A DNA stretch of 64,000 bases, taken from assembly GCA_030654175.1 (NCBI GenBank), contig JAURXZ010000030.1, positions 653,510 through 717,509 of the forward strand, written 5' to 3'. This document shows, one piece after another, positions 1 to 49,885 of this stretch. Source of the DNA: Bacteroidia bacterium. Lineage in GTDB: Bacteria > Bacteroidota > Bacteroidia > 2-12-FULL-35-15. Each line of letters begins with the position of its first letter. Position 1 is the stretch's first letter. The position numbers and the translations under genes are program-made. The notes below the pieces were generated by a model. It had not been told where the DNA came from. It made no database searches and was given only the letters and a program-made list of their open reading frames with translations.

Positions 1-1067
1 CTGCGATTTTTTTCTTCAGCAATTGCTTGCTGTTTTTCATTCTCGGCTTTTGTTGCGGCTTCTTTTTTATCAAATTCGTAATTCATTTCCTTACGGACAA
101 GCTCTTTTTTGTTTTCCTGGCTGAAAATAGTGTCTTTTAATGCAACTGCATTTTTGTAATGAACAAGCGCAAGTTCAAAACGGTTGGTTTTGGAAAAGAG
201 ATTGGCAAGGAAATTTTCGACATTCATTTCTTCCTTCATCGCTCCAATTTCCTTATCCATTGCCAATGCATCCAACAGATATTTTTCGGCTTGCGCATAT
301 TTTTTTGTATTTGTATATAAGGAGCCTATATTTCCGAGATGTCTTGCAATTCCATTTTTATCTCCAATTTCATTCGCTATTTTCAATGCCTTAAAATAAT
401 ATTCCAATGCCTTGTCGAAATATCCTTGATTTTCATAAACCTTTCCAATGTTGCCCAGTGTGTTTGCAATTTCTGCTTTATTTCCCAATGATTCTTTCAT
501 CTTCAGGGCTTTGAAATAATAATCCAGTGCTTTAGGGAAATCACCCAGATCCCTGTAAACACTTCCGATGTTGCCGAGCCAGATTGAAACATGATTTGTA
601 TTGCCCTGTTCTTTCGCCATTTTCAATGCCTTAAAACCATAGTCCAATGCTTTGGGATAGTCGGCCTGATCGTTATAGATAATCGCGATATTGCCAATTT
701 GTTTTGCCATTCCAATCTGATCATTCAACTCCTCGTATATATTTAAAGCCTTTAGCCAAAACTCCAGAGTTTTAAGGTAGTCGCCCTGATAATAATATAT
801 TATGCCAAGGATGTTGTAAGTATTTGCAAGTTCATTTTTATATGGAGGATTTAATTGTTTGGCAAGTTCCAAAGCAACGTTTCCATAATGAATAGCGGAA
901 TCGTAAAGTCCTCTGATCCGGAACTCCCCGCATAAATTGTTTAAATGAATTACTTTGTTGATGTCTGCTTTATCCTTTTTGAGCAGAGTTTGGATGGAAT
1001 CAATATTTTTATTTTGGCCTTTAAATGAAGCGGGGAAAAGAAAAAAAACAAACATAATGTATAACAT
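1..1067 (-). CDS. TPR-repeat / SpoIIE-type PP2C phosphatase paralog; only the N-terminal part lies in the window (gene 3' end beyond coordinate 1)
   Basis: Reverse strand translates from ATG at 1067 as MLYIMFVFFLFPASFKGQNKNIDSIQTLLKKDKADI, matching the N-termini of the downstream paralogs (QNQNIDSIQILLKKD). Bases 1-90 translate to MNYEFDKKEAATKAENEKQQAIAEEKNR, the coiled-coil segment that precedes the TM helix in the paralogs. Absent from the ORF track because it runs off the window edge. Confidence 0.6.
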   Translation of the reverse strand, partial: MLYIMFVFFLFPASFKGQNKNIDSIQTLLKKDKADINKVIHLNNLCGEFRIRGLYDSAIHYGNVALELAKQLNPPYKNELANTYNILGIIYYYQGDYLKTLEFWLKALNIYEELNDQIGMAKQIGNIAIIYNDQADYPKALDYGFKALKMAKEQGNTNHVSIWLGNIGSVYRDLGDFPKALDYYFKALKMKESLGNKAEIANTLGNIGKVYENQGYFDKALEYYFKALKIANEIGDKNGIARHLGNIGSLYTNTKKYAQAEKYLLDALAMDKEIGAMKEEMNVENFLANLFSKTNRFELALVHYKNAVALKDTIFSQENKKELVRKEMNYEFDKKEAATKAENEKQQAIAEEKNR

Positions 1068-1141
1068 TTGTTTGGATTTGCATCGTGGGTAAAAAGTATA
1101 GAATTTGTGTAGAATCATTTTAGTGTGTTTTTTCAAAAAGG

Positions 1142-3358
1142 TTACACTCTTACCCCAAACACACAAACATCATCTATCTGCTCTAAAGAACCTTTCCATT
1201 CGGTGAAATGATTTTTCAAAATTTCTTTTTGGTCATTCATTGGTAGTTGAGTATTCGCGACTATCAAATCTTCAAGTTGTTTGTATTTGAATTTTTTACC
1301 TTTAGGTCCACCAAACTGATCGGCATAACCATCGGAGTAGAGGTAAATGCTATCACCTTTTTGCATTTGTATTTCATTATTTGTGAAAGGGCGACTTTCA
1401 GGATAATAACCAATTGGCTGCTTGTCAGCTTTTATTTCTTCTAACTTTCCATTTCTAATTAGGTTGAGTGCATTATTGGCCCCTGCCCATTGTAATTCAC
1501 TGGTCTTAAGGTTAAGTCTGCACAAAGAAATATCCATACCATCTTTACTACCACCCGCTTCACCTGTTTGTCTAAGTTCATTAACAACTTTATCACGGAG
1601 TTGATTGAGGATATCGGCTGGATTTAATAAATGTTCCGATGCAACAATACCATTTAAAAAAGAAATGCCAAGCATACTCATAACCGCTCCCGGGACACCA
1701 TGCCCTGTGCAATCAACAGCAGCAAAGTACCAATGCCCTTGCTTTTCGACTCCCCAGTGAAAATCACCACTTACAATATCTTTTGGCATAAAAAGGATAA
1801 AATGTTCGGGCAGGTGAATGCTGATATGTGCTTTTTCACCCATCAAGGCATCCTGTATTCGTTTAGCATAACGAATACTGTCAGTGATATCTTTGTTTTT
1901 TTCCTCAATTATTTTTTTCTGGTTTTCGGTTTCTATATTCTTGATTTCTATTGTTTGTTTTTGTTTACGGGTTTTACGGAGTGAGCGAAAAATAAAACCT
2001 GCAAAAGCAAGGATTATCAACAAACCAGAAACAATTGACCGGGTTATGATTTTTTGTTTTCGGTTATTTTCTTCAGCAACGGCCTGTCGAATTTCACTCT
2101 CCTCTTTTATTAAGGCTTCTTTTTTTTCAAATTGATAATCCAACCCTTTTTTGATAAGTTCTTTTCTATTGGCCTCATTAAATAAACTTTTTTTCATTTC
2201 ATTGGAACGTTTTAAATAATAGAGTGCATACAATCTTGTTTTTTCCAGATTTAAAAGTTTATCACCAACGCTGTCAGGCAATGGAATGTTAGCCTTTTTG
2301 TAGAGGTCACTTAACACTTCGTAATCCTCTTTTACCCCTTCTTTAAAGCCAATGAAATTATCAAGATAGAGAGCGCGATGAAGGTAGCTTGACGATTCTA
2401 TATATTTCTTTTGTTCTAAATACAGCGAACCGATATTGCTCAACCAGGCTGCGGTTTCATTTTTATCTCCAAGCTCTTCGGCCATCTTCAATGCTTTGGA
2501 ATAACAATCGAATGCATCAGTATAATTCCCCTTTTTCTTATATATAGTTCCAATGCAGCCGAGTTGATTCGCAATATATTTTTTATTTCCAAGTTCTTTT
2601 GCGACACCCAATGCCTTAAAATAGCAGTTCAATGCTTTTGGATAATCTCCTTGTATTGAGTAGACATTGCCTATGTTTCCAAAATGCCTTACTATACTAT
2701 TTTTATCTTCTAGCTCTTCGGCCATCTTTAATGCTTTAAAATAGTAGTCCAATGCTTTAGGATAATCACGTTGGTTTTTATAAATAATTCCAATATTGCC
2801 TAAATGTCTTGCTATCCCGCTTTTATCTTCGATCTGTTCGGAAATTTTCAGTGCCCTTAAATAATAGTCCATAGTTTTTGTAAGGTCGCCTTCTTTTGAA
2901 TATACAAGTCCTAAATTACCTAAACTAGTGGCTATACCCATTTTATTGCCAAGTTCTTCATCGAGCCTTAACGCTTTATTATGAAAATCAATTGCACTGG
3001 AATATTCGGATTTAAGGAAATAAAAATTACCTAAGTTGCCATAGGTTTTGGCAAGGAGGGTTTTAGTATATTTTGTCTTTTCTGCCGGAGAAGGAAGTTG
3101 GTTAATGACATCAAGTGCCAGCTTGCTGAGGATTATTGATGTGTCAGGGTTTTGAAACATTAACAGCCGGCTCAGGGCGTTGAGGTGATTTACTTTATTT
3201 GTGTCGGATATATCTTTTTTAAGAAGTATTTGAATTGAATCAATGTTTTGGTTTTGAGCTTTTAAGGGATTTGTTAAATAAAAACAAGCAAATAAAATGG
3301 AAAGCAAGAGTATTCGGTTGCTGTAGAAGTGAAAATAAAAAAACCTTTGCACAATCAT
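1142..3358 (-). CDS. Tetratricopeptide-repeat sensor protein with single TM helix and C-terminal PP2C-family serine phosphatase (SpoIIE/RsbU-like) domain
   Basis: 738 aa. N-terminal signal-like hydrophobic segment, ~8 TPR units (recurring LGN.G..Y...G.Y.KAL.YY.KAL pattern), TM segment IVSGLLIILAFAGFIF, coiled coil, then PP2C/SpoIIE motifs (SGDFHW..., AAVDCTGHGVPGA, YSDGYADQFGG). Confidence 0.85.
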   Translation of the reverse strand: MIVQRFFYFHFYSNRILLLSILFACFYLTNPLKAQNQNIDSIQILLKKDISDTNKVNHLNALSRLLMFQNPDTSIILSKLALDVINQLPSPAEKTKYTKTLLAKTYGNLGNFYFLKSEYSSAIDFHNKALRLDEELGNKMGIATSLGNLGLVYSKEGDLTKTMDYYLRALKISEQIEDKSGIARHLGNIGIIYKNQRDYPKALDYYFKALKMAEELEDKNSIVRHFGNIGNVYSIQGDYPKALNCYFKALGVAKELGNKKYIANQLGCIGTIYKKKGNYTDAFDCYSKALKMAEELGDKNETAAWLSNIGSLYLEQKKYIESSSYLHRALYLDNFIGFKEGVKEDYEVLSDLYKKANIPLPDSVGDKLLNLEKTRLYALYYLKRSNEMKKSLFNEANRKELIKKGLDYQFEKKEALIKEESEIRQAVAEENNRKQKIITRSIVSGLLIILAFAGFIFRSLRKTRKQKQTIEIKNIETENQKKIIEEKNKDITDSIRYAKRIQDALMGEKAHISIHLPEHFILFMPKDIVSGDFHWGVEKQGHWYFAAVDCTGHGVPGAVMSMLGISFLNGIVASEHLLNPADILNQLRDKVVNELRQTGEAGGSKDGMDISLCRLNLKTSELQWAGANNALNLIRNGKLEEIKADKQPIGYYPESRPFTNNEIQMQKGDSIYLYSDGYADQFGGPKGKKFKYKQLEDLIVANTQLPMNDQKEILKNHFTEWKGSLEQIDDVCVFGVRV

Positions 3359-3376
3359 TTTTATTACTTTTTTATA

Positions 3377-5455
3377 TTAAACTCTTACCCCAAATAAACA
3401 AACATCATCTACTTGTTCTAAAGAGCCTTTCCATTGTATGAAATTTTTTTTATAAATTTCTTTTTGATCCTTCAACAATAAATGGTTATTCGCTAAAATC
3501 AAATCTTCAAGTTGTTTGTACTTGAATTTTTTTCCTTTAGGGCCGCCAAACTGATCGACATAACCATCGGAATAAATGTAAATGCTGTCTCCTTTTTGCA
3601 ATTGTATTTCATGATTTGTGAAAGGGCGACTTTCAGGGTAATAACCAATTGGCTGTTTATCAGCCTTTATTTCTTCTAACTTTCCATTTCTAATAAGGTT
3701 GAGTGCATTATTGGCTCCAGCCCATTGCAATTCATTGGTTTTAAGATTTAGTTTACACAGGGAAATATCCATCCCGTCTTTGCTGCCGCCCTCTTCCCCG
3801 GTTTGTCGTAATTCTTTAATGACTTTATCGCGTAACCGATTAAGAATTTCGGCAGAGCTTAATAATTCTTCCGAAGAAATAATGTCATTAAGGAAAGATA
3901 TGCTAAGCATACTCATTATCGCACCAGGGACACCGTGGCCGGTACAATCAACAGCTGCAAAGTACCAATACTGTTGTTTTTCAGCTCCCCAATAAAAATC
4001 TCCGCTTACAATATCCTTTGGCATAAAAAGAATAAAATGCTCAGGCAGATGCATGCTTGTATGCTCTTCGTCTCTCAGTAATGCGCTCTGTATTTGTTTA
4101 GCATAATGGATACTGTCTGTGATGTCTTTATTTTTTTCTTCAATTATTTTTTTTTGAAGTTCGGTTTCGGCACTCTTGCTTTCAATTAGTTGTTTTTGTC
4201 TGCGAGTAATACGAAGTGTACGGAAAATAAAACCAGCGAACAATACCACTAATAAAAAACCAAAAGCAACAAAAAATATGATCATTTTTTGTTTTTGACT
4301 TTTTGCTTCTGCAACAGCTTGTTGTTTTCTGTTTTTTGCTTTTAATTCCTCTTCTTTTTTATCAAACTCATTATTCATCTCCTCGAGTTCAAGATTTTTT
4401 TTGAATTCGCTGCTAAAAATCAGATCTTCAATTGCAATATAATGTTGATAGTAATATATTGAACGCAAGCGCATTTGTTCCATATTTAGCAGTTCTCCGC
4501 CCACGCTATCAAGCAAAGGGATATTTGAACTTTCATAGAGGTTGCTTAAAGCCAAAAAAAGAGTTTTTTCTTCAACTTTTGCTCCCGTCTTTTTATTTAT
4601 TGCGAGTGCATTGTATAGATAATCGTAAGCTTTTCCGTAATTTTTTTGTTTAGTATAAATGGAGCCTATATAGACGAGCGTATTTGCTGTTTCCATTTCA
4701 TTGCCCAATTCTCTCTTCATATTTAATGCCCTAAAAGAATATTCTAATGCTTTAGGGTAATCTCCCGTACTTTCATATATGTTTCCTATAATATCAAGAG
4801 TCCTTGCTATGCTATTATTATTTCCGAGTTCTTCCTTAATCTTTAATGACTTCAAAGAGTAGTAAATCGCCTGGTGAAAATCGTGCATAGACAAATAAAC
4901 TCCTGCGATGTTATGCATAACAGCTGCAGCTAAGTTTTTATCATTTTGTTCTTGAGCCAAATTCAAAGCCTTGAAATAATAGTCTAATGCTCTGGGGTAA
5001 TTTAGTTGAAAAGCATAAGCAATCCCAATATTACAGAAGTTTTTGCTGATGCTTTTTTTGTTGCCGATTTCTTCATTAAGCTTTAATGCTTTTAAGGTAA
5101 AATCAAGTGCTCGCGGAAAGTCTGCTTTGTTCAAATGATAAACTCCAAGATTACCATAAGTATTTGCAAGCAGCGCAAATTTCCTTTTTCCTTTAATCGA
5201 GTTCAGGTGATTAATTATTTCAAGCGCCTGATTGCCCAGTAAAATTGAACTATCTAGGTTTTGATACATCAAAGCCCAGCCCAGGTCATTAAGGTGATTT
5301 ACCTTGCTAGAGTCTTCTTTGTCTTTTTTGAGAAGCGTTATCAGTGTGTCGATGTTTTTGTTTTGGGCAAATGAAGCCCCGCCCCAACCTTCTCCAAAGC
5401 GGAGGAAGAGTGAAAAAAGAATAAAAAGAAAAGAAATTTTATGATTGTATTTCAT
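3377..5455 (-). CDS. TPR / TM / PP2C (SpoIIE-type) phosphatase, paralog of 1142..3358
   Basis: 692 aa with identical architecture. The phosphatase domain is near-identical to its neighbour (SGDFYWGAEKQQYWYFAAVDCTGHGVPGAIMSML). The 4-nt ATGA overlaps the downstream ABM gene. Confidence 0.85.
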   Translation of the reverse strand: MKYNHKISFLFILFSLFLRFGEGWGGASFAQNKNIDTLITLLKKDKEDSSKVNHLNDLGWALMYQNLDSSILLGNQALEIINHLNSIKGKRKFALLANTYGNLGVYHLNKADFPRALDFTLKALKLNEEIGNKKSISKNFCNIGIAYAFQLNYPRALDYYFKALNLAQEQNDKNLAAAVMHNIAGVYLSMHDFHQAIYYSLKSLKIKEELGNNNSIARTLDIIGNIYESTGDYPKALEYSFRALNMKRELGNEMETANTLVYIGSIYTKQKNYGKAYDYLYNALAINKKTGAKVEEKTLFLALSNLYESSNIPLLDSVGGELLNMEQMRLRSIYYYQHYIAIEDLIFSSEFKKNLELEEMNNEFDKKEEELKAKNRKQQAVAEAKSQKQKMIIFFVAFGFLLVVLFAGFIFRTLRITRRQKQLIESKSAETELQKKIIEEKNKDITDSIHYAKQIQSALLRDEEHTSMHLPEHFILFMPKDIVSGDFYWGAEKQQYWYFAAVDCTGHGVPGAIMSMLSISFLNDIISSEELLSSAEILNRLRDKVIKELRQTGEEGGSKDGMDISLCKLNLKTNELQWAGANNALNLIRNGKLEEIKADKQPIGYYPESRPFTNHEIQLQKGDSIYIYSDGYVDQFGGPKGKKFKYKQLEDLILANNHLLLKDQKEIYKKNFIQWKGSLEQVDDVCLFGVRV

Positions 5456-5793
5456 TTGAATTCATAATCCCGTTCTACCAAACAAATACGGGTTTTGTAA
5501 TTTTTATACCAAATTGCTTTTCCATTTTTTTGAGCAACAAGATGTTCTGTATTCAATTTCCATTTTTTGATGGATTCCAGATCCTTCCAATATGAAACGG
5601 TGATTCCCAAATTTTCTCTCGCAAATTCTATCCCTAAAAATCCATCCTGTTGTTTGGCTAAGTTAATCATTCGTTCTGAAGTATCGGAATAACCTTCAAC
5701 TTCCTCGGTTCGCTCGGAAGTGAATATTACCGCATAATAAGGAGGTTTAGGTGTTTCAGCGAATAAATTCATATTTGTTATCGTATATAACAA
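5452..5793 (-). CDS. Small ABM-domain (antibiotic-biosynthesis-monooxygenase-like, ferredoxin-fold) protein
   Basis: 113 aa. The pattern YAVIFTSERTE...EGY...GFLGIE...SYWKDLESIKKWK...HLVAQKNGKAIW fits the ABM/Dabb domain. Start codon overlaps the stop of the upstream phosphatase gene (translational coupling). Confidence 0.5.
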   Translation of the reverse strand: MLYTITNMNLFAETPKPPYYAVIFTSERTEEVEGYSDTSERMINLAKQQDGFLGIEFARENLGITVSYWKDLESIKKWKLNTEHLVAQKNGKAIWYKNYKTRICLVERDYEFK

Positions 5794-5805
5794 ATATAAA
5801 AAAAT

Positions 5806-5843
5806 AAAGCGATAAGTTTTAAATGAATAAAACTTATCGCTTT
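5806..5843. other. Perfect 15-bp-stem hairpin (aaagcgataagtttt / aaaacttatcgcttt, 8-nt loop)
   Basis: Read directly in the 5794-6126 intergenic region, just upstream of the ABM gene start on the minus strand. It is AT-rich, so it may be regulatory rather than a terminator. Confidence 0.5.
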
Positions 5844-5983
5844 TAAAATTAACTATAAAAGTTTTGCTTCTATTCAGGAGCGCACCTCTATAAAACTTCT
5901 AAAAAAACAAACTGTTCCAAAGTTCCAAACTATGGAAATGTTCATCAACAAATTTGATTGCGTGAGGGGTTGTAGCGAAAATC

Positions 5984-6011
5984 CTTCTCCTCGCCTTTTA
6001 GCGAGGAGAAG
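5984..6011 (-). terminator. GC-rich hairpin (cttctcctcgc / gcgaggagaag) followed on the minus strand by a T-rich tract; candidate terminator of the A2M gene
   Basis: 11-bp stem and 6-nt loop read directly from sequence, ~120 nt downstream of the A2M stop on the minus strand. Confidence 0.5.
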
Positions 6012-6126
6012 ATTGAAGCGGAAAGCCAGACCCGCAGCACAGCGAAGGGGCACGCCCTAATAAATCCAATAATAAAAAACGTTTTTACAAAACCTGTTCA
6101 GCAGAACTATATCATTTTACAACAAA

Positions 6127-9100
6127 TTATTTTCCAACCTTCACTCTGATACCTTCTGAGTTGCTTGAAAACTCAGGAGCATACATACATTGAATGGAAG
6201 TAATGCCGTTTGAGAAATTACCATTATGTGTTACCACTAATGGGTATTCAAAAACATAGGTTCCTTTGGGTAACCGGTCAAAAAAGAAATTTGTTGCTGC
6301 ATCACGTGTACTTTCGTAATACCCTAAACCATCCTGCCATTTGTATCTTGAAATAACATTGGTTGGTTCAAAACCAGATGCACGCATATCTTTCATTTGT
6401 ACATATTCCATATCTCTATCAACACGCAACTCGATACGAACCTTAATTTTGTCTCCCACCTTCAATAACGTTTTTTCCGTTATAGGTTCTATCACGGGAC
6501 CGGCATCAGTGTTTTTTTGCAGGAACAATTGTTTCTTCAAATTCAATGGTGTTTTTGAAGGAGTGATCTTGTCCAACTGCTCAAAATATTGCCAATACAA
6601 AGCGCCCCAACTAACACCTTCATCTTTTTTCACAACTGTAACTTCACCCATTTTAGGATTAATATCACCTCCGCTCCAGGATGTTTTAAAATAACCCGTG
6701 CCTGCTTCCTGTTTTAAATCAGGCATTTTTTTAGGATCAATTTTTTGTTCACCCAAACTAATTTCCACATTGCTTTCTGTTGCTAACCAGTCTGTTCCCC
6801 TAAGCAACAATGCATACACCGCTTCAGTTGTTGCTTTAGTCGTTTTCCAATCCTGTGTTTGTTTTGATTTTAGTAACCATACTTTCAAATCATCCACTGC
6901 TTTTTTATCATTTGATACTTCATCAAACGCTTCGATCAAAAGCGCTTGTGCTTCAATCGGTGCCTGATACCAATAAAATCCATCATAATTCTCTTTCCAG
7001 TACATTCCCATTTCTTCGCTGTTCAGAGAGTTCTCTTTCAAGGATTTCATTATATCCTTAGGAGTTACTTTATCATCATAACGATGTAATGCCAATGCGA
7101 TCATTCCTTGCATATACCGGCTGTTTTGCAACCAATATTTTTTCTCCTGGCCTTTATAATAATCAAATGCTGTTTGATTACGATTGTCAATACTAATGTC
7201 CTTAAAATAACTGCGGGCATACAAGTATTGAATTTGCTGGTAACCTAAGTGATTATCATTAAGATGTGCTCTATCGTGTTTCAATATCCATTCATAATCT
7301 TCGCGAATACGATTATCCAGATACTTCACTCCCTCTTTCACCATATTCCATACGGTTGCATCATTATGAATATTTTTAATACCCAGGTGATCCAGATGCC
7401 CCATTCCTGTGATGATATGCTGCGTGATGTAACGATTATCAGGCATTCCTTCAAACCACGGCCACCCACCATTTGACGATTGCTGTTTTTGCAGTTTTTT
7501 TAACGCAACGGCCAACTCATTACTCATTTTATTTAAATCGAACAATACCGCAACACGTTTTTTGCGTTCCGTCTCATCTTTTGCATCCAACACCCATGGG
7601 GTTTCTTCAAGCATCAACGATTTTAATTCCTGATTTTTTTCCAAGTTGGATAGGAGCGCTTTTGAATCCGGAGTGTTTTTCCAGGAATCAAATACCGCTT
7701 TTATTTTTGGTGATGAGTTTGCAATATGCGAAGCAATGCTGTTTGCATAAAAACGTGAAAAAGTTTGTTCCGAACATTCATAAGGATATTCCATCAAATA
7801 TGGCAACGCTTGAACTGCATACCATGCAGGGTTTGCAGTAAACTCCAGCGTAAGTTTATGATTACGTAAAGTTGTGGAACCATTACTTTGATTAATCAGT
7901 TTTTCGAAACGGAATGTTTTGGTTTGGTTGTTTCGGATAGGCAATGGCATTGTTTCAGTAACCAGCATTCTGTTAGTTAATACAGGTAATGCCATTTCCT
8001 CTCCATCTGTAAAGTTCCCGGCCTTAGCAACCACTTTATAGGTGATGGCCCCTACACCTTCGGGAACAGTTATACTCCAGCTTAATGCAGAGCTTTGCCC
8101 TTTTTTAGATGTGAATGAAGTTTGCCCCTCTTTTGTAAGTTGGGCAGTAATATCCTTCATGGATGTTGCATCATAAAAATAGACCTGTGCGGTTCCTGTC
8201 AGATCGCCATCAGATAAATTTGAAATTTTTGTACTGAATTCCATTTTATCATTTTCACGAAAAAAACGAGGAGCGTTTGGTATTACCATCAAGTCTTTTT
8301 GCGTAACCAATTCTTTTTGAATAGTGCCAAATTTCAAATCTTTGGTATGTGCAAAACCCATCATTTTCCATTTGGTTAACGCCTCCGGAATAGTAAATTT
8401 TATTATTACATTTCCATCTTTATCTGTTTCCAGTTGAGGATAGAAAAAAGCTGTTTCAGCAAAATTACTTCGTGCAGCAACTTTTGACATGTCTTCTCCA
8501 CCGCCTGATTTTTCTTCGGGTTCCTGATTTTGTGATTCACCTGTGGAGGCTGTTGTAACATCATTAAGATAACCACTGTTGGAATCTTTTTTCGGTGATT
8601 CTTTTTTATCTTTACTATTTCCTGATAATTCACTTTCATCACTCTCTGCAGATTTTTCTTCGCGAGCCAAAGAACCACCCATTGCAGGAGCACTCATACT
8701 TCTGGATGCCATTTTTTGTCTGCGACCGCCTCCGCCTTCACCATCCATATCATCACCATAACCATAATAGCCATTACTATATCCGAACCAATTTAAATGA
8801 TCGTAATAACGGTATACACCTGATGGATATCTGTTCCACTCAATATTAAAAACCTGCGCATTCGCGGTACCAAAACCACTATTTACATCCCAATATAAAT
8901 TGGAATAATAATTATTGTAAATATCAAAATACCAATAATTGGGCTTAAAAGCATCTAATGACGCATCGTACAAGGTTGCCATCATTTCAGCCGCCAATTT
9001 ATCTCCTTTTTTATCTTTGATCTTTACTTTCCATTCTTCCTGCTGTCCGGGAAGTAATTTATTGCGGAAGGTTTCAAATTCAATATCCAATTCCTTATTT

Positions 9101-12100
9101 GTATATGGCACAGTAATCACACCATCGTGCATGTAGGACCGATTATTTTTTATAAATACACAATGAAAAGAAAAATTACCACGGTGTTTTTCTTCAACAG
9201 GAATTTCAATTAATTTCTGTTCTTTATTAAGTGTGATATACTCTTTTTTAACGATCTCGCCCTTGTGTTCTATTTCATAAAGCACTTTTACATTGTTTTC
9301 TTTTGAGCCGATCACAAACTGGGCTTTGGCGCCAGGTTCAACAGGACGAACAGTGATCATATTAAACCAATCAATATTGTTACCCGGCACTTCGCTTCCG
9401 CTGTTAGAATAAACAGTAAAATATTTTATTTCTTTCACATCTTCGCCATAGGCATCTTTACTATGTGCCTCCATAACATATACTCCCTTTTTCCATGTAT
9501 TAAGATTTGCGATCTTTACAGAGTCGTTCATATTTGGAGATGAAATTTTGCCACTTGCAGAAACTATTTCGGCCGTATTTTTAAATGCTTTTTCAAAAAC
9601 TTTTTCCCCTCGTACCCATTTGTACATATTGTTTTCGTCCTTGTACTCATCATTAGGAAAGGTTTTTTCAAATTCATCTTTACTCAATAAAAATTTATCG
9701 GGCTGAGTCCAGGCACGTGTACGATATGTTTTTTCAGGCTCTTTCAATTTATAGATCTCTACTTTGCCTTGTGCAGCCTGAAACTGACCACTCATATTGG
9801 TAGTAGAAATTGTAAAAGCCTCTTTATTTTCTTTCTCAAGCAAAGCCGGAATGTTTATATCAAGCGTCAATGCTGTGTATGCAACCCTCACATTCGTCTG
9901 TGAACTGTGTGTTTCACCATTGATATCGGTAACATCGGCATAAACCGTAAAGGAGTATGTTGGTTGATACGATTTAGGAATACTAAGATCGGGTTGCGCT
10001 TTAAAATCAATAAAAAAAGCACCTGTATCATTTGAAGTAGTAACACCGTTTGTAATTTCCATTTGCGGAGACTGAGGGTAATAACCTCTCCACCAATACC
10101 ACCAATAAGGGAAGGATGCATTTCTTACCACACGGTATTTTACTTCAGCACCATCAATTTTAGCGCCTGAATAGGCCTTAGCAAGGCCTTCAACTTTTAT
10201 CTTTTCGTCTAAACGAAAACTGCCTTTTACCGGATTAAAACTTACTTCGAACTTAGGACGCTTATACTCTTCCACCGAAAAATAAATAGATCCGCTACCA
10301 TTGCTTAAACTCATTTGCCCATTAAGAACCCCACTTGGCGTTGTGAATGAACCGTTGAAAGTACCATACTCATTGGTGGTTAAACTTACATCGGCCACTT
10401 TCTGAGAATTAACATCATAAAAAGTAACTGTAGTGGATGTTTTGGGCATTATTTCATTTGTTTCACCATCGGTATTAATCATTATGCCTTTGAAATAAAC
10501 GGTCTGTCCGGGTCTATAAATAGCCCTATCCATAAAGAAGAACGTTCTTGGTTGCTTGCGTTTTTCATCAATATATGTTTTGTACTGATAAATTGCATTG
10601 TCCGTTTGAAGACGATCTACCTCCACTTTACCATCCCCTGTGGCAGATGGAGCATTGTAAGAAAAATCCACACTAAAATTTCTATAATCACCAACCGGTG
10701 GAACATTAAAATATCCGGTTTCATCGCTTGTGAATTTTTCTGATCTTACATATTCATATTTACGTAAAGTGTAGTTGTATTTTTCGTAATACAATTGTGC
10801 GGATACTCCTTTCAATGGAGCGCCATTTTCACGGTGTTGTAAATAAAAATCATAACTGCCATTTGTCATTTTCCGATTTATATAGCTGATGTTTGACGAC
10901 CAGATCGGAGCATATGCCACACCATTTTTTTTATAAGAGAATGTTTTGTCAGACCCTATAAGTATCACATAATGTCCGAGTGGCAGTTCGGGTATTTTTA
11001 TTTCTGTGGAATGTGATTGATAATCTTCATCAACCGGTAACTCAATTGTCCATTCCTTTAATGGTGCAAGTTTTAAATATTGCTTGATCAATTGTTCGCC
11101 ATAATAACGTTCAACAGATCTATTATATTTATCAATATCCATTTGTGCAATGCGCACATAAACTGTTTTTACATTTTTATATGTTAAAAGCGCGCGGAAT
11201 GGTTGGTTAGGAAGCGCCACCTTATCTGTAATAAAATCAATGGAATGTTCATTTATCTGAGCTTTCAGCACTTCACAATTAATGGCACCATCACTCTTTG
11301 GATATTTTTTAATTACAGCATCACAAACCTCAAGCGCTTGCTTTTTCAACCACTTGTATTCCTCTGATTGCAAAGGCTTGTATTTATTACCTTGTTCAAA
11401 GTACACTTTAGCTATTTCATAACTTACTTCGGCTGAAGCTGGATTTGCGGCTAAACGTTTTTCCAGATTTTGTAATGCCTTCAGATATAAACTATCTTTT
11501 ATTTCCGAAACAGATTTGTTTTTTACAAATTTCAATCGTTTTAAGTCAACGTCAATTAAAGCGATCTCTCCATGTCCTTCCTTGTATGAAAAGGAGTTGG
11601 TTGCGGAGTGAAACTTTATAAGGTCCTGCAAAATTGTAAGCGCATAATATTTGGAAGACAAGGTGTCTTTTGTTTCAATTTTAAGTTTTGAGAACGACTC
11701 AAAATCATTAAAATAATTATTATCATTTAATTCGAATTTGTAAGCCGGACGAATGATGTCGGGCTCTTCGCTCATATAAAAATCAACGGCACGGTGTGCA
11801 ACAAAATCATATAAGGTTGGGCGAAATTTACGTGAGTTGTTGTTTTCTTTTACTAATATCTCATCGTAAATATTAAGAGGGGTGCGCTTTAAACTATCAA
11901 CACTTTCAAGTGAAGCCTGATAATTTTTTATGACCTGAGAAAAAATTGTTTTTAAATCCCAGGTAGTTATATCATCATTATCAAAATTAACAGTGGCTGT
12001 GCGGTTATAAAATTTCCAACGGTTGTTTTGATAATACTGCCAATAACTTTCGGCTATCATGGATTGCAAAACAGGCTTCACCGGATAGGTGGCTTCTTTG

Positions 12101-12435
12101 GCCTCTTCATTTAATTTGTTGAGTGCTTTCACCAAAGAATATTCTTCGATGTATTTTTCAAATTTCATCCGATGGATGATGGCTTTTACAAATTGAGGTG
12201 AATTGTTTTCGGCTTTTGCTTTATCGTAAATTCCAGCCACCACCTCCAAGGCGGATTTGTTCAGGCCTTTTGCAGTGAGCGAATCGACCTTTTTCCATTC
12301 TTTAACATAATTGCTGCCCTTAGGGAAAATTAATAACATCGTGTTTTTATTTTTTTTATAAGTGGTGATTGTAAATGCTGTTGCAATCAATGAAATTGCG
12401 ATCAAAGCAATAACAGATATTCCCTTGTATTTCAT
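6127..12435 (-). CDS. Bacterial alpha-2-macroglobulin family protein (MG domains, thioester motif CSEQ, bait-like Ser/Glu/Gly-rich region)
   Basis: 2102 aa. N-terminal signal/anchor MKYKGISVIALIAISLIATAF. Low-complexity bait-like segment GEGGGGRRQKMASRSMSAPAMGG...SGGGEDMSK, then SNFAETAFFYPQLETDKDGN (A2M N-terminal region signature), then the thioester site EYPYECSEQTFSRFYANSIASH. Confidence 0.9.
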   Translation of the reverse strand: MKYKGISVIALIAISLIATAFTITTYKKNKNTMLLIFPKGSNYVKEWKKVDSLTAKGLNKSALEVVAGIYDKAKAENNSPQFVKAIIHRMKFEKYIEEYSLVKALNKLNEEAKEATYPVKPVLQSMIAESYWQYYQNNRWKFYNRTATVNFDNDDITTWDLKTIFSQVIKNYQASLESVDSLKRTPLNIYDEILVKENNNSRKFRPTLYDFVAHRAVDFYMSEEPDIIRPAYKFELNDNNYFNDFESFSKLKIETKDTLSSKYYALTILQDLIKFHSATNSFSYKEGHGEIALIDVDLKRLKFVKNKSVSEIKDSLYLKALQNLEKRLAANPASAEVSYEIAKVYFEQGNKYKPLQSEEYKWLKKQALEVCDAVIKKYPKSDGAINCEVLKAQINEHSIDFITDKVALPNQPFRALLTYKNVKTVYVRIAQMDIDKYNRSVERYYGEQLIKQYLKLAPLKEWTIELPVDEDYQSHSTEIKIPELPLGHYVILIGSDKTFSYKKNGVAYAPIWSSNISYINRKMTNGSYDFYLQHRENGAPLKGVSAQLYYEKYNYTLRKYEYVRSEKFTSDETGYFNVPPVGDYRNFSVDFSYNAPSATGDGKVEVDRLQTDNAIYQYKTYIDEKRKQPRTFFFMDRAIYRPGQTVYFKGIMINTDGETNEIMPKTSTTVTFYDVNSQKVADVSLTTNEYGTFNGSFTTPSGVLNGQMSLSNGSGSIYFSVEEYKRPKFEVSFNPVKGSFRLDEKIKVEGLAKAYSGAKIDGAEVKYRVVRNASFPYWWYWWRGYYPQSPQMEITNGVTTSNDTGAFFIDFKAQPDLSIPKSYQPTYSFTVYADVTDINGETHSSQTNVRVAYTALTLDINIPALLEKENKEAFTISTTNMSGQFQAAQGKVEIYKLKEPEKTYRTRAWTQPDKFLLSKDEFEKTFPNDEYKDENNMYKWVRGEKVFEKAFKNTAEIVSASGKISSPNMNDSVKIANLNTWKKGVYVMEAHSKDAYGEDVKEIKYFTVYSNSGSEVPGNNIDWFNMITVRPVEPGAKAQFVIGSKENNVKVLYEIEHKGEIVKKEYITLNKEQKLIEIPVEEKHRGNFSFHCVFIKNNRSYMHDGVITVPYTNKELDIEFETFRNKLLPGQQEEWKVKIKDKKGDKLAAEMMATLYDASLDAFKPNYWYFDIYNNYYSNLYWDVNSGFGTANAQVFNIEWNRYPSGVYRYYDHLNWFGYSNGYYGYGDDMDGEGGGGRRQKMASRSMSAPAMGGSLAREEKSAESDESELSGNSKDKKESPKKDSNSGYLNDVTTASTGESQNQEPEEKSGGGEDMSKVAARSNFAETAFFYPQLETDKDGNVIIKFTIPEALTKWKMMGFAHTKDLKFGTIQKELVTQKDLMVIPNAPRFFRENDKMEFSTKISNLSDGDLTGTAQVYFYDATSMKDITAQLTKEGQTSFTSKKGQSSALSWSITVPEGVGAITYKVVAKAGNFTDGEEMALPVLTNRMLVTETMPLPIRNNQTKTFRFEKLINQSNGSTTLRNHKLTLEFTANPAWYAVQALPYLMEYPYECSEQTFSRFYANSIASHIANSSPKIKAVFDSWKNTPDSKALLSNLEKNQELKSLMLEETPWVLDAKDETERKKRVAVLFDLNKMSNELAVALKKLQKQQSSNGGWPWFEGMPDNRYITQHIITGMGHLDHLGIKNIHNDATVWNMVKEGVKYLDNRIREDYEWILKHDRAHLNDNHLGYQQIQYLYARSYFKDISIDNRNQTAFDYYKGQEKKYWLQNSRYMQGMIALALHRYDDKVTPKDIMKSLKENSLNSEEMGMYWKENYDGFYWYQAPIEAQALLIEAFDEVSNDKKAVDDLKVWLLKSKQTQDWKTTKATTEAVYALLLRGTDWLATESNVEISLGEQKIDPKKMPDLKQEAGTGYFKTSWSGGDINPKMGEVTVVKKDEGVSWGALYWQYFEQLDKITPSKTPLNLKKQLFLQKNTDAGPVIEPITEKTLLKVGDKIKVRIELRVDRDMEYVQMKDMRASGFEPTNVISRYKWQDGLGYYESTRDAATNFFFDRLPKGTYVFEYPLVVTHNGNFSNGITSIQCMYAPEFSSNSEGIRVKVGK

Positions 12436-12581
12436 ACTTAAACTGTTTTTTATTTGTAAATATTGGATTCATAGTTGTTTATAGAAAACATTAAACTTGA
12501 ATACTATAATAATGATGCAGGGTGAATTAAAATTCCATAAAGAATCAAAATATTTTTTTTAATCATTTGATTAAAAGGCCA

Positions 12582-14765
12582 TTAAACTCTAATTCCAATC
12601 ACTAAAATATCATCCACCTGCTCACAATTTCCTTTCCACTGTTGGAGCTGTTTATTTAAAATTTCTTTTTGCATGCGCATTGGCTTATGGCAATTCGCCA
12701 AAAACAACTCTTTCAATTGTTTGGACTGGAATTTTTTACCTTTCGGTCCACCAAACTGATCAACGTAACCATCGCTGAATGTAAAAATACAATCGCCTTT
12801 TTCTAATGGGATCACTGTGCGTGTGAATGGTTTTTCTATACCAATATGTTTTCCTACAGGCATTTTATCTGGTTTAAATACCAATAGTTCACCATTTCTA
12901 ATAATATAAAAAGAATTATTGGCGGCAGAATATTCCAATTCCATTTTTTTAAGATCGAAACGACACAGAACAGTATCCATTCCATCTTTCCCCTCTTCGG
13001 AAGACCCTTCAGGGTTAACTGCTAAAATTATTATTCTACGTAATTCATTAAGAATTTCATCCGTATGTTTAAGATGGGATTTGGAATAAATAATTTCATT
13101 AAGAATCCCCATACTGATCAAACTCATAAATGCACCCGGTATTCCGTGGCCGGTGCAATCAGCTGTACAAACATACAGGTCGTTATCTTTTTCCATCAAC
13201 CAATAAAAATCCCCACTCACAATATTTCGAGGCTGATACAAAATAAAATAATCGGAAAGGCGCTGAGAAATATACCTTTCAGATGTTAAAAAAGAAGATT
13301 GAATTCGTTTTGCATAGCTGATACTCTCGGTAATTTCTTTATTCTTTTGGCTGATCTCAATATTCGCTTTTTGTTTAATCCGATAACGGTTATAAGCAAG
13401 CAACGCAAACAACAATAACAATATACTTACTCCAATAGAACCATTTTTAACAACATTCTGGTTTTTTAACTTCGCCTCTTGTAATGATTTGTCTTTGGTA
13501 AGCAGTTCGATCTCTTTTTCTTTTTTATCAGTTTCATATTTAGTTTGTATTTCCGCCATGTTTTTTGAATTGTTTTCATTCATAAGCGAATCTTTAATAG
13601 TGGCATGATGTCTAAAATAAGTATATGCATTTTTAAAGTCTTCTTTTTTTAAGTATGCTTCTGAAAGTTCTTCATTACCTTCCATCAATATTTCCTTACT
13701 TTTAATAGATTCAGCAAGTACTAAACTTTTTTTTAGATATTTCAATGCCTTTTCAATATCCCCTTTATTAGAATATAAAGTACCAATATTGAGCAATGAT
13801 TTTGCGCTTCCATCTTTATTTTCAATATCATCATTTATAAGCAAGGCTCTCTCATAATATTCTAAGGCTTTTTCGTAATTTTTTTTGTTGCTGTATATGT
13901 TTCCGATATTCATTAGAGAAATTGCAGTTGCGGTTTTATCTTTAATTTCTTCAGTAATTCGCAAAGATTTTAGATAATATACCAATGCAGTATCATTGTT
14001 TTTTAGTTTTTCATAAACATTTCCAATATTAGTTAGGGATTTATTAAGACCCGCTTGACTTTGCACCTCAGTGCTGATTGCCATCGCTTGTTTATAATAG
14101 GTCAAAGCGCTTTCGTAATTCCCGCCTGCCTTATAAACATTCCCAACTCCTAAAGAAGGGTTAATCATTAACTCCCTATTGCCAAGCTGCTCAAATGTTT
14201 TTAATGCCTTGATATAATACTCCAAAGCTTTTTCATAATTCCCTGTATAAAAATACGAGGTCGCAATATTGCTAAGTGGCATGGATTTTTTATCTCCAAT
14301 GAATTCACAAATTTCTAAAGATTTTAAATAATTTTTTAAAGCTTTTTCATAATTTCCTTGATTTATATTAACATTCCCAATACTATTTAAACTATTCGCA
14401 ATTCCTTTTTTATCGGAAATACCTTCTCTGACAGATAATGCTTTAGAATACTGCTCTAATGCTTTATCAAAATCCCCTTGAACAAAATAAATAGCACCAA
14501 TTGCGCTATAAGAGTTTCCTATCCCTTTTTTAAAATCAATTTTTGCAGAAAGTTTTAATGCTTCATGGGAATGTTCTAAAGCTTTTTCAGGGTTTTTTTT
14601 TCTGTATTCTACTGACAGAGCATTTAGAATATTTATTTTTGATGTGTCGACAGAATTTTTTAATTCATTTTCGAGACTATCTATTTTATTGGATTGGGGA
14701 AAGCAACTTGCAGGATGAAATAAAATGCAAACAAAAATCAAAAAGGAAAATAAAAAATATTTCAT
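12582..14765 (-). CDS. TPR / TM / PP2C (SpoIIE-type) phosphatase, fourth paralog
   Basis: 727 aa with signal peptide, TPR units, TM segment SIGVSILLLLFALLAY, and the phosphatase block SGDFYWLMEKDNDLYVCTADCTGHGIPGAFMSL...FSDGYVDQFGG. Confidence 0.85.
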   Translation of the reverse strand: MKYFLFSFLIFVCILFHPASCFPQSNKIDSLENELKNSVDTSKINILNALSVEYRKKNPEKALEHSHEALKLSAKIDFKKGIGNSYSAIGAIYFVQGDFDKALEQYSKALSVREGISDKKGIANSLNSIGNVNINQGNYEKALKNYLKSLEICEFIGDKKSMPLSNIATSYFYTGNYEKALEYYIKALKTFEQLGNRELMINPSLGVGNVYKAGGNYESALTYYKQAMAISTEVQSQAGLNKSLTNIGNVYEKLKNNDTALVYYLKSLRITEEIKDKTATAISLMNIGNIYSNKKNYEKALEYYERALLINDDIENKDGSAKSLLNIGTLYSNKGDIEKALKYLKKSLVLAESIKSKEILMEGNEELSEAYLKKEDFKNAYTYFRHHATIKDSLMNENNSKNMAEIQTKYETDKKEKEIELLTKDKSLQEAKLKNQNVVKNGSIGVSILLLLFALLAYNRYRIKQKANIEISQKNKEITESISYAKRIQSSFLTSERYISQRLSDYFILYQPRNIVSGDFYWLMEKDNDLYVCTADCTGHGIPGAFMSLISMGILNEIIYSKSHLKHTDEILNELRRIIILAVNPEGSSEEGKDGMDTVLCRFDLKKMELEYSAANNSFYIIRNGELLVFKPDKMPVGKHIGIEKPFTRTVIPLEKGDCIFTFSDGYVDQFGGPKGKKFQSKQLKELFLANCHKPMRMQKEILNKQLQQWKGNCEQVDDILVIGIRV

Positions 14766-14964: not shown

Positions 14965-15010
14965 ATAAAAAATAACCCCGATAAATTCTTATCTAAAAAA
15001 TTTATCGGGG
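14965..15010 (-). terminator. Rho-independent terminator for the SBBP/T9SS gene
   Basis: Stem ccccgataaatt / aatttatcgggg (12 bp) with a U-run on the minus strand (top-strand aaaaaataa at 14965-14975), immediately after the stop at 15036. Confidence 0.7.
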
Positions 15011-15035
15011 TATTCAGATGAAGTGTTTTATTGTT

Positions 15036-25765: not shown

Positions 25766-26064
25766 CGATGTGCTGATGTGCTGATTCCTGATGAGATAAT
25801 GTGCTAAATTTTTGATGTGCTAATGTGCTGATTAGTTGATGTGCTGATGAACCAGTGAACAAAATTTTAATGTACAACATACTAATGACTAAGATGATGC
25901 GTAGATGTGCTGATTAGTTGACTTTCCAGTCACTGATTAGCTCTTTTCTCACAAATTCTGAAATCAAATTTATGCCAACTAAATCGTTATATTTGTACAT
26001 TGCTAATCAGTACATCAACTAATCAGCACATTAGCACATTAGCACATCGGTAAATCAGCACATT
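25766..26064. repeat. Composite repeat filling the lpxK/DUF3109 divergent intergenic region. Tandem TGTGCTGAT-type units form a left arm (25766-25850), a right arm (26001-26064) is their reverse complement, and a partial middle copy lies at 25903-25922.
   Basis: Left arm cgatgtgctgatgtgctgattcctgatgag...tgatgtgctaatgtgctgattagttgatgtgctgatg. Right arm aatcagtacatcaactaatcagcacattagcacattagcacatcggtaaatcagcacatt. The right arm ends 6 nt before the DUF3109 ATG. Confidence 0.7.
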
Positions 26065-26070
26065 AAAATT

Positions 26071-31372: not shown

Positions 31373-31552
31373 GTAGGCGCTAAGCTGAAGCGTTGCAAGT
31401 GTGTGAGGGCTTAGTGACGTTTTGTAACAGGTAAGCTGTGCTTACAATCCCAATATTTAATTCGAAGACAAAGTTTACTATGTTTGAAGTACTGTGTATG
31501 GTAAGCACAGCTTACCTGTTAAGATAGTCACTAAGCGCAGCTTAGCGCCTAC
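31373..31552. repeat. REP-like nested foldback. Outer inverted repeat is gtaggcgctaagctg / cagcttagcgcctac; inner is taacaggtaagctgtgcttac / gtaagcacagcttacctgtta.
   Basis: Read directly, immediately upstream of the transposase gene. Arm copies recur at 32231-32287, 33865-33882 and 34436-34504. Confidence 0.75.
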
Positions 31553-31671
31553 ATACACCATACACATACCTACACATACATAGTAAATCAAATCCAAAAA
31601 ATAAAGTTACTGTTGAATTTAAAAACAATACCAATTGTTTTGTTTATTTTTAAAATTAAATTCACAAAAGA

Positions 31672-32205
31672 ATGTCAGAAAAATATAAAACACATAGTGA
31701 TGGTTTATACTTTGTTAGCTTTAGTGTTGTAGGCTGGATCGATGTTTTTACAAGAAGAGAATATCAGGAAATTTTGGTGGATAGTATTTCGTATTGTCAA
31801 CAACACAAAAACCTTAAAATTTATTGTTATTGTGTTATGCCAAGTCATGTTCATTTTATAACGTATTCTGAAAATGGCGAAATATCAAATGTTTTAAGAG
31901 ATTTAAAATCATTTACTGCTAAACAAATAATAAAGGCAATAGAAGAAAACCCTACAGAAAGCAGAAAAGAATGGATGTTAAATAAGTTTGAGTATCATGG
32001 AAAAAACAGTCCTCAAAAACAAAAGATGCAATTCTGGAAACATGATAATCATCCATTTTTTTTATATAGCAATAAAATGATCCAGCAAAAAGTGGATTAT
32101 ATTCATAACAACCCTGTTGAAGCAGGTTTTGTTAACGACCCTAAAGAGTGGCGGTTGAGCAGCGCTAATGAACAAAGCCCGATAAAATTGGATGAACGCA
32201 TTTAG
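31672..32205 (+). mobile_element. IS200/IS605-family HuH tyrosine transposase (Y1 / REP-associated RAYT-like TnpA)
   Basis: 177 aa. HuH motif in CVMPSHVHFI and size/organisation typical of RAYT. Flanked on both sides by copies of the same palindromic repeat ending ...cactaagcgcagcttagcgcctac (31524-31552 and 32263-32287). Confidence 0.7.
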
Positions 32206-32230
32206 CTGGCTACTATATTTGAAGAACTGA

Positions 32231-32287
32231 GTATGGTATTCATAACTTACCAATTAAGGATATCACTAAGCGCAGCTTAGCGCCTAC
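32231..32287. repeat. Degenerate copy of the right arm of the REP-like foldback, downstream of the RAYT gene
   Basis: gtatggta...cttacc..ttaagga tatcactaagcgcagcttagcgcctac aligns to 31496-31552 with an internal deletion. Confidence 0.65.
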
Positions 32288-44551: not shown

Positions 44552-44590
44552 GCAGTAGGCAATTATTCAATTTGAACAATTGCCTACTGC
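44552..44590 (+). terminator. 13-bp perfect hairpin gcagtaggcaatt / aattgcctactgc built from the TTGCCTACTGC repeat; candidate terminator after fbp
   Basis: Read directly 18 nt after the fbp stop. The loop is 13 nt and the downstream tract is only weakly T-rich. Confidence 0.5.
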
Positions 44591-44636
44591 CCAATTGTGA
44601 AATTGTAAAATTTATTTCTTTTAATCGTTTTTTAAT

Positions 44637-49825: not shown

Positions 49826-49885
49826 TACTTAGAACATTTATTAATTAACCCGTTGGTGAAGCATAAATCATACAGCAATCATGAT

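Follow-up and report, generated by a model that had tools for sequence, protein, structure and literature searches.

Phosphatases of the RsbU/SpoIIE type are expected to dephosphorylate a phosphorylated STAS protein. FimS of P. gingivalis carries a tetratricopeptide repeat (TPR) domain that lies in the periplasm and in which single substitutions change signalling (PMC11053733). The bacterial alpha-2-macroglobulins (A2Ms) are divided into Type I, defined by the CxEQ motif and featuring also a lipobox and pbpC, and Type II, which is devoid of CxEQ and is encoded in the six-gene mag operon (PMC5764988). Relatives of all these proteins meet in a stretch of 64,000 nucleotides from a Bacteroidia bacterium (contig JAURXZ010000030.1, positions 653,510 to 717,509; hereafter the window), where four genes, P0 to P3, encode sensor phosphatases made of a TPR array, a transmembrane (TM) helix and a PP2C domain, and flank a small ABM-like gene and the gene of a large A2M, with all six genes (P0, P1, P2, ABM-like, A2M and P3) on the minus strand. 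The original prediction, made from these letters, had tied the phosphatases and the A2M into one module. We consider it rather probable that two independent things are juxtaposed, namely a stand-alone thioester A2M and a lineage-specific expansion of phosphatases that combine a FimS-like TPR sensor with a SiaA-like PP2C output; their adjacency is most likely a gene order inherited in one clade, not functional coupling.

The sensor phosphatases

The four genes and their parts are the following.

1-1067, minus strand: P0, 5' part (355 codons) of a TPR-TM-PP2C sensor phosphatase gene that runs past the window edge
1142-3358, minus strand: P1, 738-aa TPR-TM-PP2C sensor phosphatase (Pfam SpoIIE 80.9 bits)
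1979-2035, minus strand: TM-encoding stretch of P1
1145-1888, minus strand: PP2C module of P1
3377-5455, minus strand: P2, 692-aa TPR-TM-PP2C sensor phosphatase (Pfam SpoIIE 76.7 bits)
4226-4282, minus strand: TM-encoding stretch of P2
3380-4123, minus strand: PP2C module of P2
12582-14765, minus strand: P3, 727-aa TPR-TM-PP2C sensor phosphatase, the stable "upstream" ortholog (Pfam SpoIIE 68.8 bits)
13398-13454, minus strand: TM-encoding stretch of P3
12585-13334, minus strand: PP2C module of P3

A common architecture (signal peptide, TPR array, one TM helix and a SpoIIE/PP2C domain) had been claimed for the four co-oriented genes, and it was recovered by Pfam, by a hydrophobicity scan and by a database protein that completes P0. 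Pfam assigns TPR families together with SpoIIE (PF07228) to P1, P2 and P3, with 69-81 bits against a cutoff of 25, and TPR families only to the part of P0 that lies within the window. The N-terminus of the database protein P0154 (660 aa) is identical to P0 over the 354 in-window residues, and this protein has a TM helix at 359-377, all PP2C metal-site motifs and PF07228 in its precomputed domain list; therefore, the four-paralog architecture is real. P2 is identical to the database protein P0124, and P1 is found in NCBI as P0121, 721 aa long, with the start placed later. The hydrophobicity scan returned one N-terminal hydrophobic segment and one internal TM helix for P1 and P3, and the N-terminal segment of P0 and P2, which is under the scan threshold, was called by eye. 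From this arrangement we infer a likely topology with the TPR array outside and the PP2C domain inside, provided that the N-terminus is exported.

The closest solved relative of the P1 C-terminal module is SiaA-PP2C from P. aeruginosa (PDB 6K4E; 1.7e-31 over 249 residues). The paper on this structure names C475, D534, D600 and D604, along with three conserved aspartates that are left unnumbered (PMC7647112). The full metal-site set given here is our own mapping of the 6K4E alignment and, in SiaA numbering, comprises D457, D474/C475, D534, D600, D604 and D653/D654, all kept in P0-P3. In P1 the corresponding motifs are SGDFHW at 530, DCTGHG at 549, DGMD at 606, SDGYADQ at 675 and IDDV at 728, while the four paralogs share the forms SGDF[HY]W, DCTGHG, DGMD, SDGYxDQ and [VI]DD. 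Four simpler motifs (GDx, DxxGHG, [ST]DG and a C-terminal DD) occur in 32/32 collected family members. The metal-binding aspartates, on which the original prediction had wished to be checked, are thus intact in all four paralogs, and because the metal-site motifs are conserved P0-P3 look like active phosphatases.

The NCBIfam SiaA model (NF038263) matches with 151-173 bits (P1 173, P3 151), far under its equivalog cutoff of 700, and only model positions ~377-657 align, with a match that starts ~70 residues ahead of the PP2C domain and covers the C-terminal ~280 residues. What the two have in common is a membrane-anchored sensor with a cytoplasmic PP2C output, which is predicted for the proteins of the window. 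The differences are that no HAMP domain was found in Pfam and NCBIfam scans of the paralogs, that a TPR array replaces the SiaA periplasmic domain, and that siaB, siaC and siaD are not adjacent, either in the window or at 12 TPR-phosphatase loci. With RsbU, RsbP and SpoIIE of Firmicutes the paralogs share the Pfam family PF07228, above threshold, and their homologs are labelled "serine phosphatase RsbU" by the JGI annotation; however, they have no RsbU N-terminal, PAS or multi-TM SpoIIE domain, and no STAS or anti-sigma kinase gene lies in the same operon.

The N-terminal TPR-TM module is matched by the NCBIfam FimS model (NF053520) with 65-160 bits against a cutoff of 600 (P1 134; P3 160, over residues 168-467). 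The match extends up to the second TM, and in P3 it runs through the TM region. Like FimS, the paralogs have a hydrophobic N-terminus, a TPR array and a TM helix, with the periplasmic location of the array being a probable one here. In contrast to FimS, the output is a PP2C domain instead of HisKA/HATPase, kinase domains not being found with Pfam, and there is no response regulator gene next to them. With P1 as query, at least 3531 proteins were returned at E <= 1e-20; among the top 120 nearly all combine TPR with SpoIIE, and many lie on shared contigs. The pairing of a FimS-like periplasmic TPR sensor with a SiaA-like PP2C output is therefore very common in Bacteroidota, and literature searches turned up no experimental study of TPR-PP2C phosphatases from this phylum. 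A PADLOC scan gave generic TPR matches only, and none for the A2M or the ABM-like protein.

Linkage of A2M and phosphatase genes across genomes

The neighbourhood was compared in 80 A2M loci from GTDB species representatives and in contigs with closer A2M or phosphatase homologs. A PP2C gene is located directly upstream of A2M in 10 assemblies (the window, L001, L002, L010, L012, L081, L082, L083/84 and L085), and in all 9 clade assemblies other than that of the window this position is held by a one-to-one ortholog of P3. Downstream of A2M, each genome has 0-4 further phosphatase copies, with the downstream side of L010 unseen as this contig ends inside A2M. In the A2M tree the linked loci form one monophyletic clade of uncultured Bacteroidia, whose A2Ms are 76-95% identical to that of the window.

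Outside this clade the picture changes. No phosphatase gene adjoins A2M in twelve sister-lineage loci, whose A2Ms are 68-81% identical to that of the window and most of which have a long flank on one side or both; their A2M is placed between genes for an FAD oxidoreductase and for cupin, ABM and RsmB proteins. In about 60 more distant A2M loci the linkage is likewise absent, with the exception of L011, which has a PAS-SpoIIE gene, and of L077, which has one TPR-SpoIIE gene 3 kb away. Among the 80 loci no neighbour is present in more than 15, and the recurrent ones are housekeeping genes (RimK, AstE, BipA, MFS, methylmalonyl-CoA mutase and others). Thus, the conservation of the A2M-phosphatase linkage, as looked for in related genomes, does not reach beyond one clade, being absent in its sister lineages and in the other A2M loci examined.

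Neither are the paralogs confined to the surroundings of A2M, as the same family forms tandem arrays beside glutamate dehydrogenase (GDH). On the contig of L083 (L088/89; GCA_040384225.1), four tandem TPR-PP2C genes stand directly after GDH (L088 6261-17782), 30-50 kb from A2M and with a 400-aa SpoIIE-only gene before GDH, and a GDH-linked pair of TPR-PP2C genes is found at L086 5927-10118 (L086/87). The ABM-like gene adjoins A2M also in L003, L004, L007, L009, L018 and L065, an adjacency older than the phosphatase linkage; in L007, ABM overlaps an unrelated 335-aa gene by 4 nt.

The A2M protein

The presence of a 2102-aa thioester A2M, already stated in the original prediction, is supported by both its Pfam domains and its CSEQ motif.

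6127-12435, minus strand: alpha-2-macroglobulin family protein, 2102 aa (Pfam MG2, A2M_BRD, A2M, bMG10)
7765-7776, minus strand: A2M thioester CSEQ, residues 1554-1557

CxEQ is found in 111/120 A2M homologs and in 82/82 locus copies, and the homologs, more than 2000, make up a large subfamily, mainly of Bacteroidota with a few other phyla. The A2M_BRD match covers residues 1031-1138 (29.9 bits against a cutoff of 22.7). A low-complexity stretch at ~1234-1319, before the A2M domain, is the fastest-evolving part of the protein (omega 0.25 against 0.01-0.05 elsewhere) and may be called bait-like, since fast evolution is expected of a bait region. An AlphaFold2 (AF2) model of residues 1-640 (10516-12435, minus strand; pLDDT 83.7) has an N-terminal helix at 5-29 and an all-alpha domain of ~350 residues (helices 43-394), followed by beta-sandwich domains. 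There is a weak TPR-like sequence match at residues 310-356, and Foldseek with this N-terminal model gave generic beta-sandwich matches only (TM-score ~0.15), with the alpha domain left unplaced. The first 60 residues hold no Cys in this A2M and in the 15 homologs inspected, and there is no lipobox; on the basis of sequence and model, the protein would be tethered by an N-terminal TM/signal anchor instead. A sequence search for solved structures gave no bacterial A2M, only weak MG2 matches to eukaryotic ones, and NCBIfam holds no model for the A2M, ABM or DUF7793 proteins of the window.

Compared with the Type I A2Ms (E. coli YfhM/ECAM and Salmonella Sa-A2M), the protein has the same CxEQ, a match to the bait-region family, MG and bMG10 domains, a predicted periplasmic location and a predicted inner-membrane tethering. 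Unlike them, it has a putative TM/signal anchor in the place of the lipobox Cys and an extra all-alpha N-terminal domain of ~350 aa within its total of 2102 aa, and pbpC/PBP1c was not found in any of the 80 loci. The absence of pbpC beside this A2M, pointed out in the original prediction, therefore holds, and pbpC is not a recurrent neighbour in the family. With the Type II A2Ms (P. aeruginosa MagD and E. coli YfaS) the likeness is that of a large multi-MG periplasmic protein, and JGI names the homologs "YfaS", but here CxEQ is conserved and there is no mag/yfa six-gene operon. Together, these traits outline a Bacteroidota subfamily of thioester A2Ms without pbpC or lipobox, with an extra helical domain and with a conserved motif upstream of the gene.

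Transcription units and the motif upstream of A2M

The elements on both sides of A2M are listed below.

5452-5772, minus strand: ABM-like gene, 106 aa from ATG 5772 (PF03992 23.9 bits against a cutoff of 23.1, marginal)
5791-5798, minus strand: TATATTTG, predicted -7 element matching TAnnTTTG (consensus match), 19 nt upstream of the ABM ATG
5806-5843, minus strand: terminator-like hairpin, 16-bp stem then ATTTTTTTAT, between A2M and ABM
5955-6036, plus strand: Flavo-1 RNA motif (RF01705) between A2M and ABM, on the strand opposite to the genes (53.7 bits, gathering score 42)
12514-12539, minus strand: TATGGAAT-N13-TGCATC, conserved bipartite promoter-like motif, ~100 nt upstream of the A2M ATG
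14975-15011, minus strand: terminator-like hairpin, 16-bp stem and T run, 3' of the upstream SBBP/type IX secretion system (T9SS) gene

The bipartite motif, which can also be written TTATGGAAT-N13-TGCATC, shows no variation among 9 aligned clade members. Its family form, TTATGGAAT-N12/13-(T)TGCATC, is placed 40-110 nt upstream of A2M genes; a loose version precedes A2M in 41/80 loci, including loci with unrelated neighbours, the background rate being 0.055 per kb per strand. Motif positions outside the search pattern are invariant in 28/28, and of the strict matches, 53 in 1.7 Mb, about 48 immediately precede A2M. Because the motif is kept with or without phosphatase neighbours, it would be a regulatory signal of A2M's own, family-wide and independent of the phosphatases. 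From its sequence it looks like an alternative-sigma promoter of the extracytoplasmic function (ECF)-like kind. In sigma-54 promoters 10 nt are expected between GG and GC, and sigma-54 was rejected for this motif as its GG-GC spacing is 16 nt. A sigma-70 promoter scan was also discarded (60 sites against 71 in shuffles), the model not being applicable to Bacteroidota. Literature searches turned up no paper on this regulon motif, which could lead to the regulator of A2M.

A second copy of the motif is present at L071 2689-2714 and L040 3137-3162, where it precedes four small co-oriented open reading frames (ORFs) ~7 kb from A2M. An ECF sigma gene was sought behind it, and the four ORFs found there, of ~170-200 aa, have no Pfam match; this run of genes may be in the same regulon as A2M.

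As to the other units, the 14975-15011 hairpin probably marks the start of a separate P3 transcription unit. Downstream of A2M, the hairpin at 5806-5843 is joined by a second one at 5983-6012, and the ABM-like gene is preceded by a match to TAnnTTTG, the -7 consensus of the Bacteroidetes primary sigma factor (PMC7366714); these predicted elements would separate A2M from an ABM-P2-P1-P0 operon. Within this unit the TGA stop of ABM and the ATG of P2 share the ATGA at 5452-5455, an overlap that can be read in the sequence as had been reported, and the remaining gaps are of 18 nt (P2-P1) and 74 nt. The start of ABM is most likely ATG 5772 (106 aa) and not TTG 5793 (113 aa), because the TAnnTTTG match sits 19 nt before the former and the orthologs in L001, L081, L003, L004, L009 and L065 are 105-107 aa long. 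Its description as an ABM-domain gene stands in so far as the PF03992 match is above the cutoff, but the margin is small, and the score against PF13826 (22.4 bits) is under the cutoff of 25. Flavo-1 recurs at the equivalent spot in L082 (16387-16466, minus strand; 62 bits) and was not found in L001, L012, L081, L083 and L085, with L001 showing a 237-nt gap there; this patchiness suggests a mobile element or repeated loss.

Divergence of the paralogs

The phosphatase-encoding 3' thirds had been described as nearly identical at the nucleotide level and taken as a sign of gene conversion. P1 and P2, however, share 76.6% of nucleotides over 1177 nt (86% in the last 300 nt), and P3 has 63-72% nucleotide identity to P1 and P2 in the 3' parts. 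The PP2C parts of P1 and P2 are 81% identical as proteins, with a nonsynonymous divergence (dN) of 0.10, a synonymous divergence (dS) of ~1.0, a dN/dS of ~0.1 and a longest identical run of 29 nt, while the PP2C of P3 is 49-52% identical to the other paralogs. With a dS of ~1.0 and no identical run beyond 29 nt, recent gene conversion between P1 and P2 is excluded, and their PP2C similarity is that of old duplicates under purifying selection. Over the final ~100 codons of P1 and P2, dS is 0.5-0.7, compared with 1.1-1.9 upstream, and this local dip is a hint of an older exchange.

The further proposal of the original prediction, diversified sensors on conserved catalytic modules, fits the data, as the TPR parts diverge fast and the PP2C parts are constrained. 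In the comparison of the window with L001 (dS 0.5-0.9), the PP2C part of P3 retains 96% aa identity with an omega of 0.02, the TPR part 65-79% with an omega of 0.1-0.2, and A2M 95% with an omega of 0.04. Positive selection on the TPR part was considered and rejected: omega is 0.1-0.27 and never >1, in keeping with relaxed or faster evolution instead. For the downstream paralogs L001 offers no clear orthologs (TPR 40-56%, PP2C 73-83% identity); collinearity with this genome is 88% through ABM and the first ~45 codons of P2, and then collapses. Furthermore, the best L001 partner of the TPR half of P1 is not that of its PP2C half, which weakly suggests domain-level mosaicism.

In a tree of PP2C domains the upstream copies, of the P3 type, group tightly as 1:1 orthologs. 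Those from downstream of A2M form a bushy clade in which copies of the GDH arrays are intermixed and some genome-specific duplicate pairs occur, and the copies of one genome are mostly not each other's closest relatives. The downstream array thus appears to evolve by birth and death, with sensors that change fast and a catalytic core that is seemingly frozen.

Weighing the explanations

The arrangement invites the idea that A2M and the flanking TPR-PP2C proteins form an envelope-defence module, in which the TPR domains sense protease attack or the state of A2M and signal by partner-switching dephosphorylation. The order SpoIIE-A2M-(SpoIIE)n is indeed kept in all 10 clade assemblies, two of them with rearranged outer flanks, the P3 orthologs are always directly upstream of A2M, co-oriented and at a short spacer with no terminator detected, and predictions place both A2M and the TPR domains at the inner membrane, on its periplasmic side. 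Nevertheless, we regard this idea as unlikely, as the linkage is missing in sister lineages with an equally similar A2M and in the rest of the family, the same phosphatases stand in arrays beside GDH, the promoter-like motif of A2M is kept independently of them, terminator-like hairpins and a promoter motif come between A2M and the downstream operon, and the number of downstream copies varies from 0 to 4. The tie to a protease-trapping protein suggested in the original prediction is not supported by this evidence, in particular the restriction to one clade, the GDH arrays and the separate motif. A narrower version, which we hold to be very unlikely, would make the P3-type phosphatase and A2M a coupled breach sensor, with the TPR domain recognising the all-alpha domain of A2M or its cleaved form and reporting envelope proteolysis via PP2C, and with the downstream array supplying variant sensors for other ligands. 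A different proposal leaves A2M aside and takes the ABM-P2-P1-P0 operon as the functional unit, where the activity of the phosphatases would be linked to a small molecule or cofactor that the ABM-like protein produces, alters or binds. It draws on the ATGA by which, in the window, L001 and L081, ABM overlaps the first phosphatase gene downstream (4 nt), on the TAnnTTTG match just before ABM and on the short gaps of 18 and 74 nt. But ABM adjoins A2M in outgroups without phosphatases, and in L007 it overlaps the unrelated 335-aa gene; L083 and L085 have a downstream phosphatase without ABM, ABM is absent from the GDH-linked arrays, and even the naming as ABM has a narrow margin (23.9 bits, cutoff 23.1), so that this proposal too is given a small probability. 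Finally, ongoing gene conversion of the 3' catalytic parts would turn the PP2C similarity into concerted evolution instead of purifying selection. The lower dS in the last ~100 codons of P1 and P2 and the different L001 partners of the P1 halves speak for old exchanges between paralogs; yet the dS of ~1.0, the dN/dS of ~0.1, the 29-nt limit of identical runs and the 76.6% nucleotide identity, together with the distance of P3 (49-52%) and the scarcity of same-genome closest relatives, make an ongoing process extremely improbable.

The reading that we prefer, two independent things set side by side, has points against it as well. The P3-A2M spacer (146 nt) contains no terminator-like site, so read-through from P3 into A2M is possible. 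In L081 and L085 the outer flanks are rearranged, yet the P3-A2M pair and usually a downstream copy are intact; because synonymous sites are near saturation between clade members (dS 0.5-0.9), the retained order leaves room for some selection for the P3-A2M linkage. The K+R counts of the two flanks of the TM helix differ little (4 against 4-6), which bears on the topology; like the ligand, the topology is inferred. Moreover, no STAS, kinase, anti-sigma, RsbW-like or SiaB/C-like gene adjoins any of the 12 TPR-phosphatase loci examined.

Under the juxtaposition reading, the role of A2M is presumably that of other CxEQ A2Ms, the trapping of proteases which enter the periplasm, and its upstream motif would drive its transcription. 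Each phosphatase would sit in the inner membrane by its single TM helix, the TPR array being periplasmic and the PP2C domain cytoplasmic, with a coiled coil next to the membrane. The TPR array would bind a ligand, in all likelihood peptide or protein, and this would alter the dimer or helix arrangement across the membrane, turning the Mn/Mg-dependent PP2C on or off; the PP2C would in turn remove the phosphate from Ser or Thr of a STAS- or SiaC-like switch protein whose gene lies elsewhere in the genome. With their different sensors and near-identical catalytic surfaces, the many paralogs could in this way feed different signals into one shared substrate; the combination of fast sensors and a near-frozen catalytic domain in birth-and-death arrays suggests precisely such a convergence of many inputs. 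One of these genes, P3, would have become fixed upstream of A2M in one clade of uncultured Bacteroidia, and the birth-and-death array of 0-4 copies would have developed downstream, here presumably co-transcribed with the small ABM-like gene. So understood, the cluster is an ordinary gene-family expansion, and the tempting reading as a "defence module" is thereby removed.

Partner genes and the DUF7793 protein

No STAS, kinase or anti-sigma gene was found inside the cluster, with none in 1-18.5 kb, which agrees with the original prediction. The only STAS-fold gene in the window is the "orphan STAS-like gene" 19 kb off.

33897-34301, minus strand: DUF7793 protein, 19 kb from the cluster (PF25056 77.6 bits)

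The SpoIIAA/STAS fold of this protein was established by profile and fold searches, a sequence search against the PDB having given no match. A profile of 60 homologs hits PDB 3BL4 at 2e-18, and the AF2 model (pLDDT 94) matches SpoIIAA-like/STAS structures in Foldseek with TM-scores of 0.53-0.72, among them 2Q3L (SpoIIAA-like, 0.64-0.70), 4XS5 (STAS, 0.65-0.72) and 8IH8 (anti-sigma-F antagonist, prob 1.00). In SpoIIAA the corresponding motif is FMD57-S58-S59, with Ser58 as what we take to be the canonical phosphorylation position. Aligned by motif, NID63-K64-D65 of DUF7793 places Lys64 at this position, and the family consensus, "IxxEARE", has no conserved Ser/Thr. Since Lys64 occupies the phospho-Ser position and no Ser/Thr is conserved, DUF7793, which is not linked to the cluster, appears to be without the canonical phosphorylatable Ser and not an obvious PP2C substrate. 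Its relatives number 1310 at E <= 1e-3, and some are multi-domain proteins of up to 1056 aa.

Other features of the window and of related contigs

The rest of the window is ordinary Bacteroidota chromosome, with T9SS cargo, LpxK, ribonucleotide reductase and central metabolism. Another tandem family expansion is found at 45938-63908 on the minus strand, where five large genes are co-oriented; four of them carry PKD repeats and CHU_C type IX secretion signals and have 3' ends that are 66-82% similar, and this repeated 3' end recurs in the fifth (55701-62267, 2188 aa), the Pfam domains being called in the other four. On the plus strand, two tandem genes for single-strand-binding proteins (36779-37168 and 37225-37563) are 95% identical over 300 nt.

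An IS200-like Y1 transposase gene (31672-32205; PF01797 29.8 bits) lies within 31476-32287 and is flanked by 77-nt direct repeats (31476-31552 and 32211-32287) that are 83% identical; gene and repeats together resemble a REP-associated tyrosine transposase. On a related contig, the edge of L012 (1-70, plus strand) has a match to a group II intron domain (RF00029, 47.8 bits). Two intergenic repeats complete the list: tandem repeats of ~33-40 nt with the core AATTGCCTACTG at 42685-42829 and 44569-44608, around the GNAT and FBPase genes, and a 56-nt inverted repeat of ATGTGCTAATGTGCTGAT-like units at 25797-26065, between lpxK and DUF3109.

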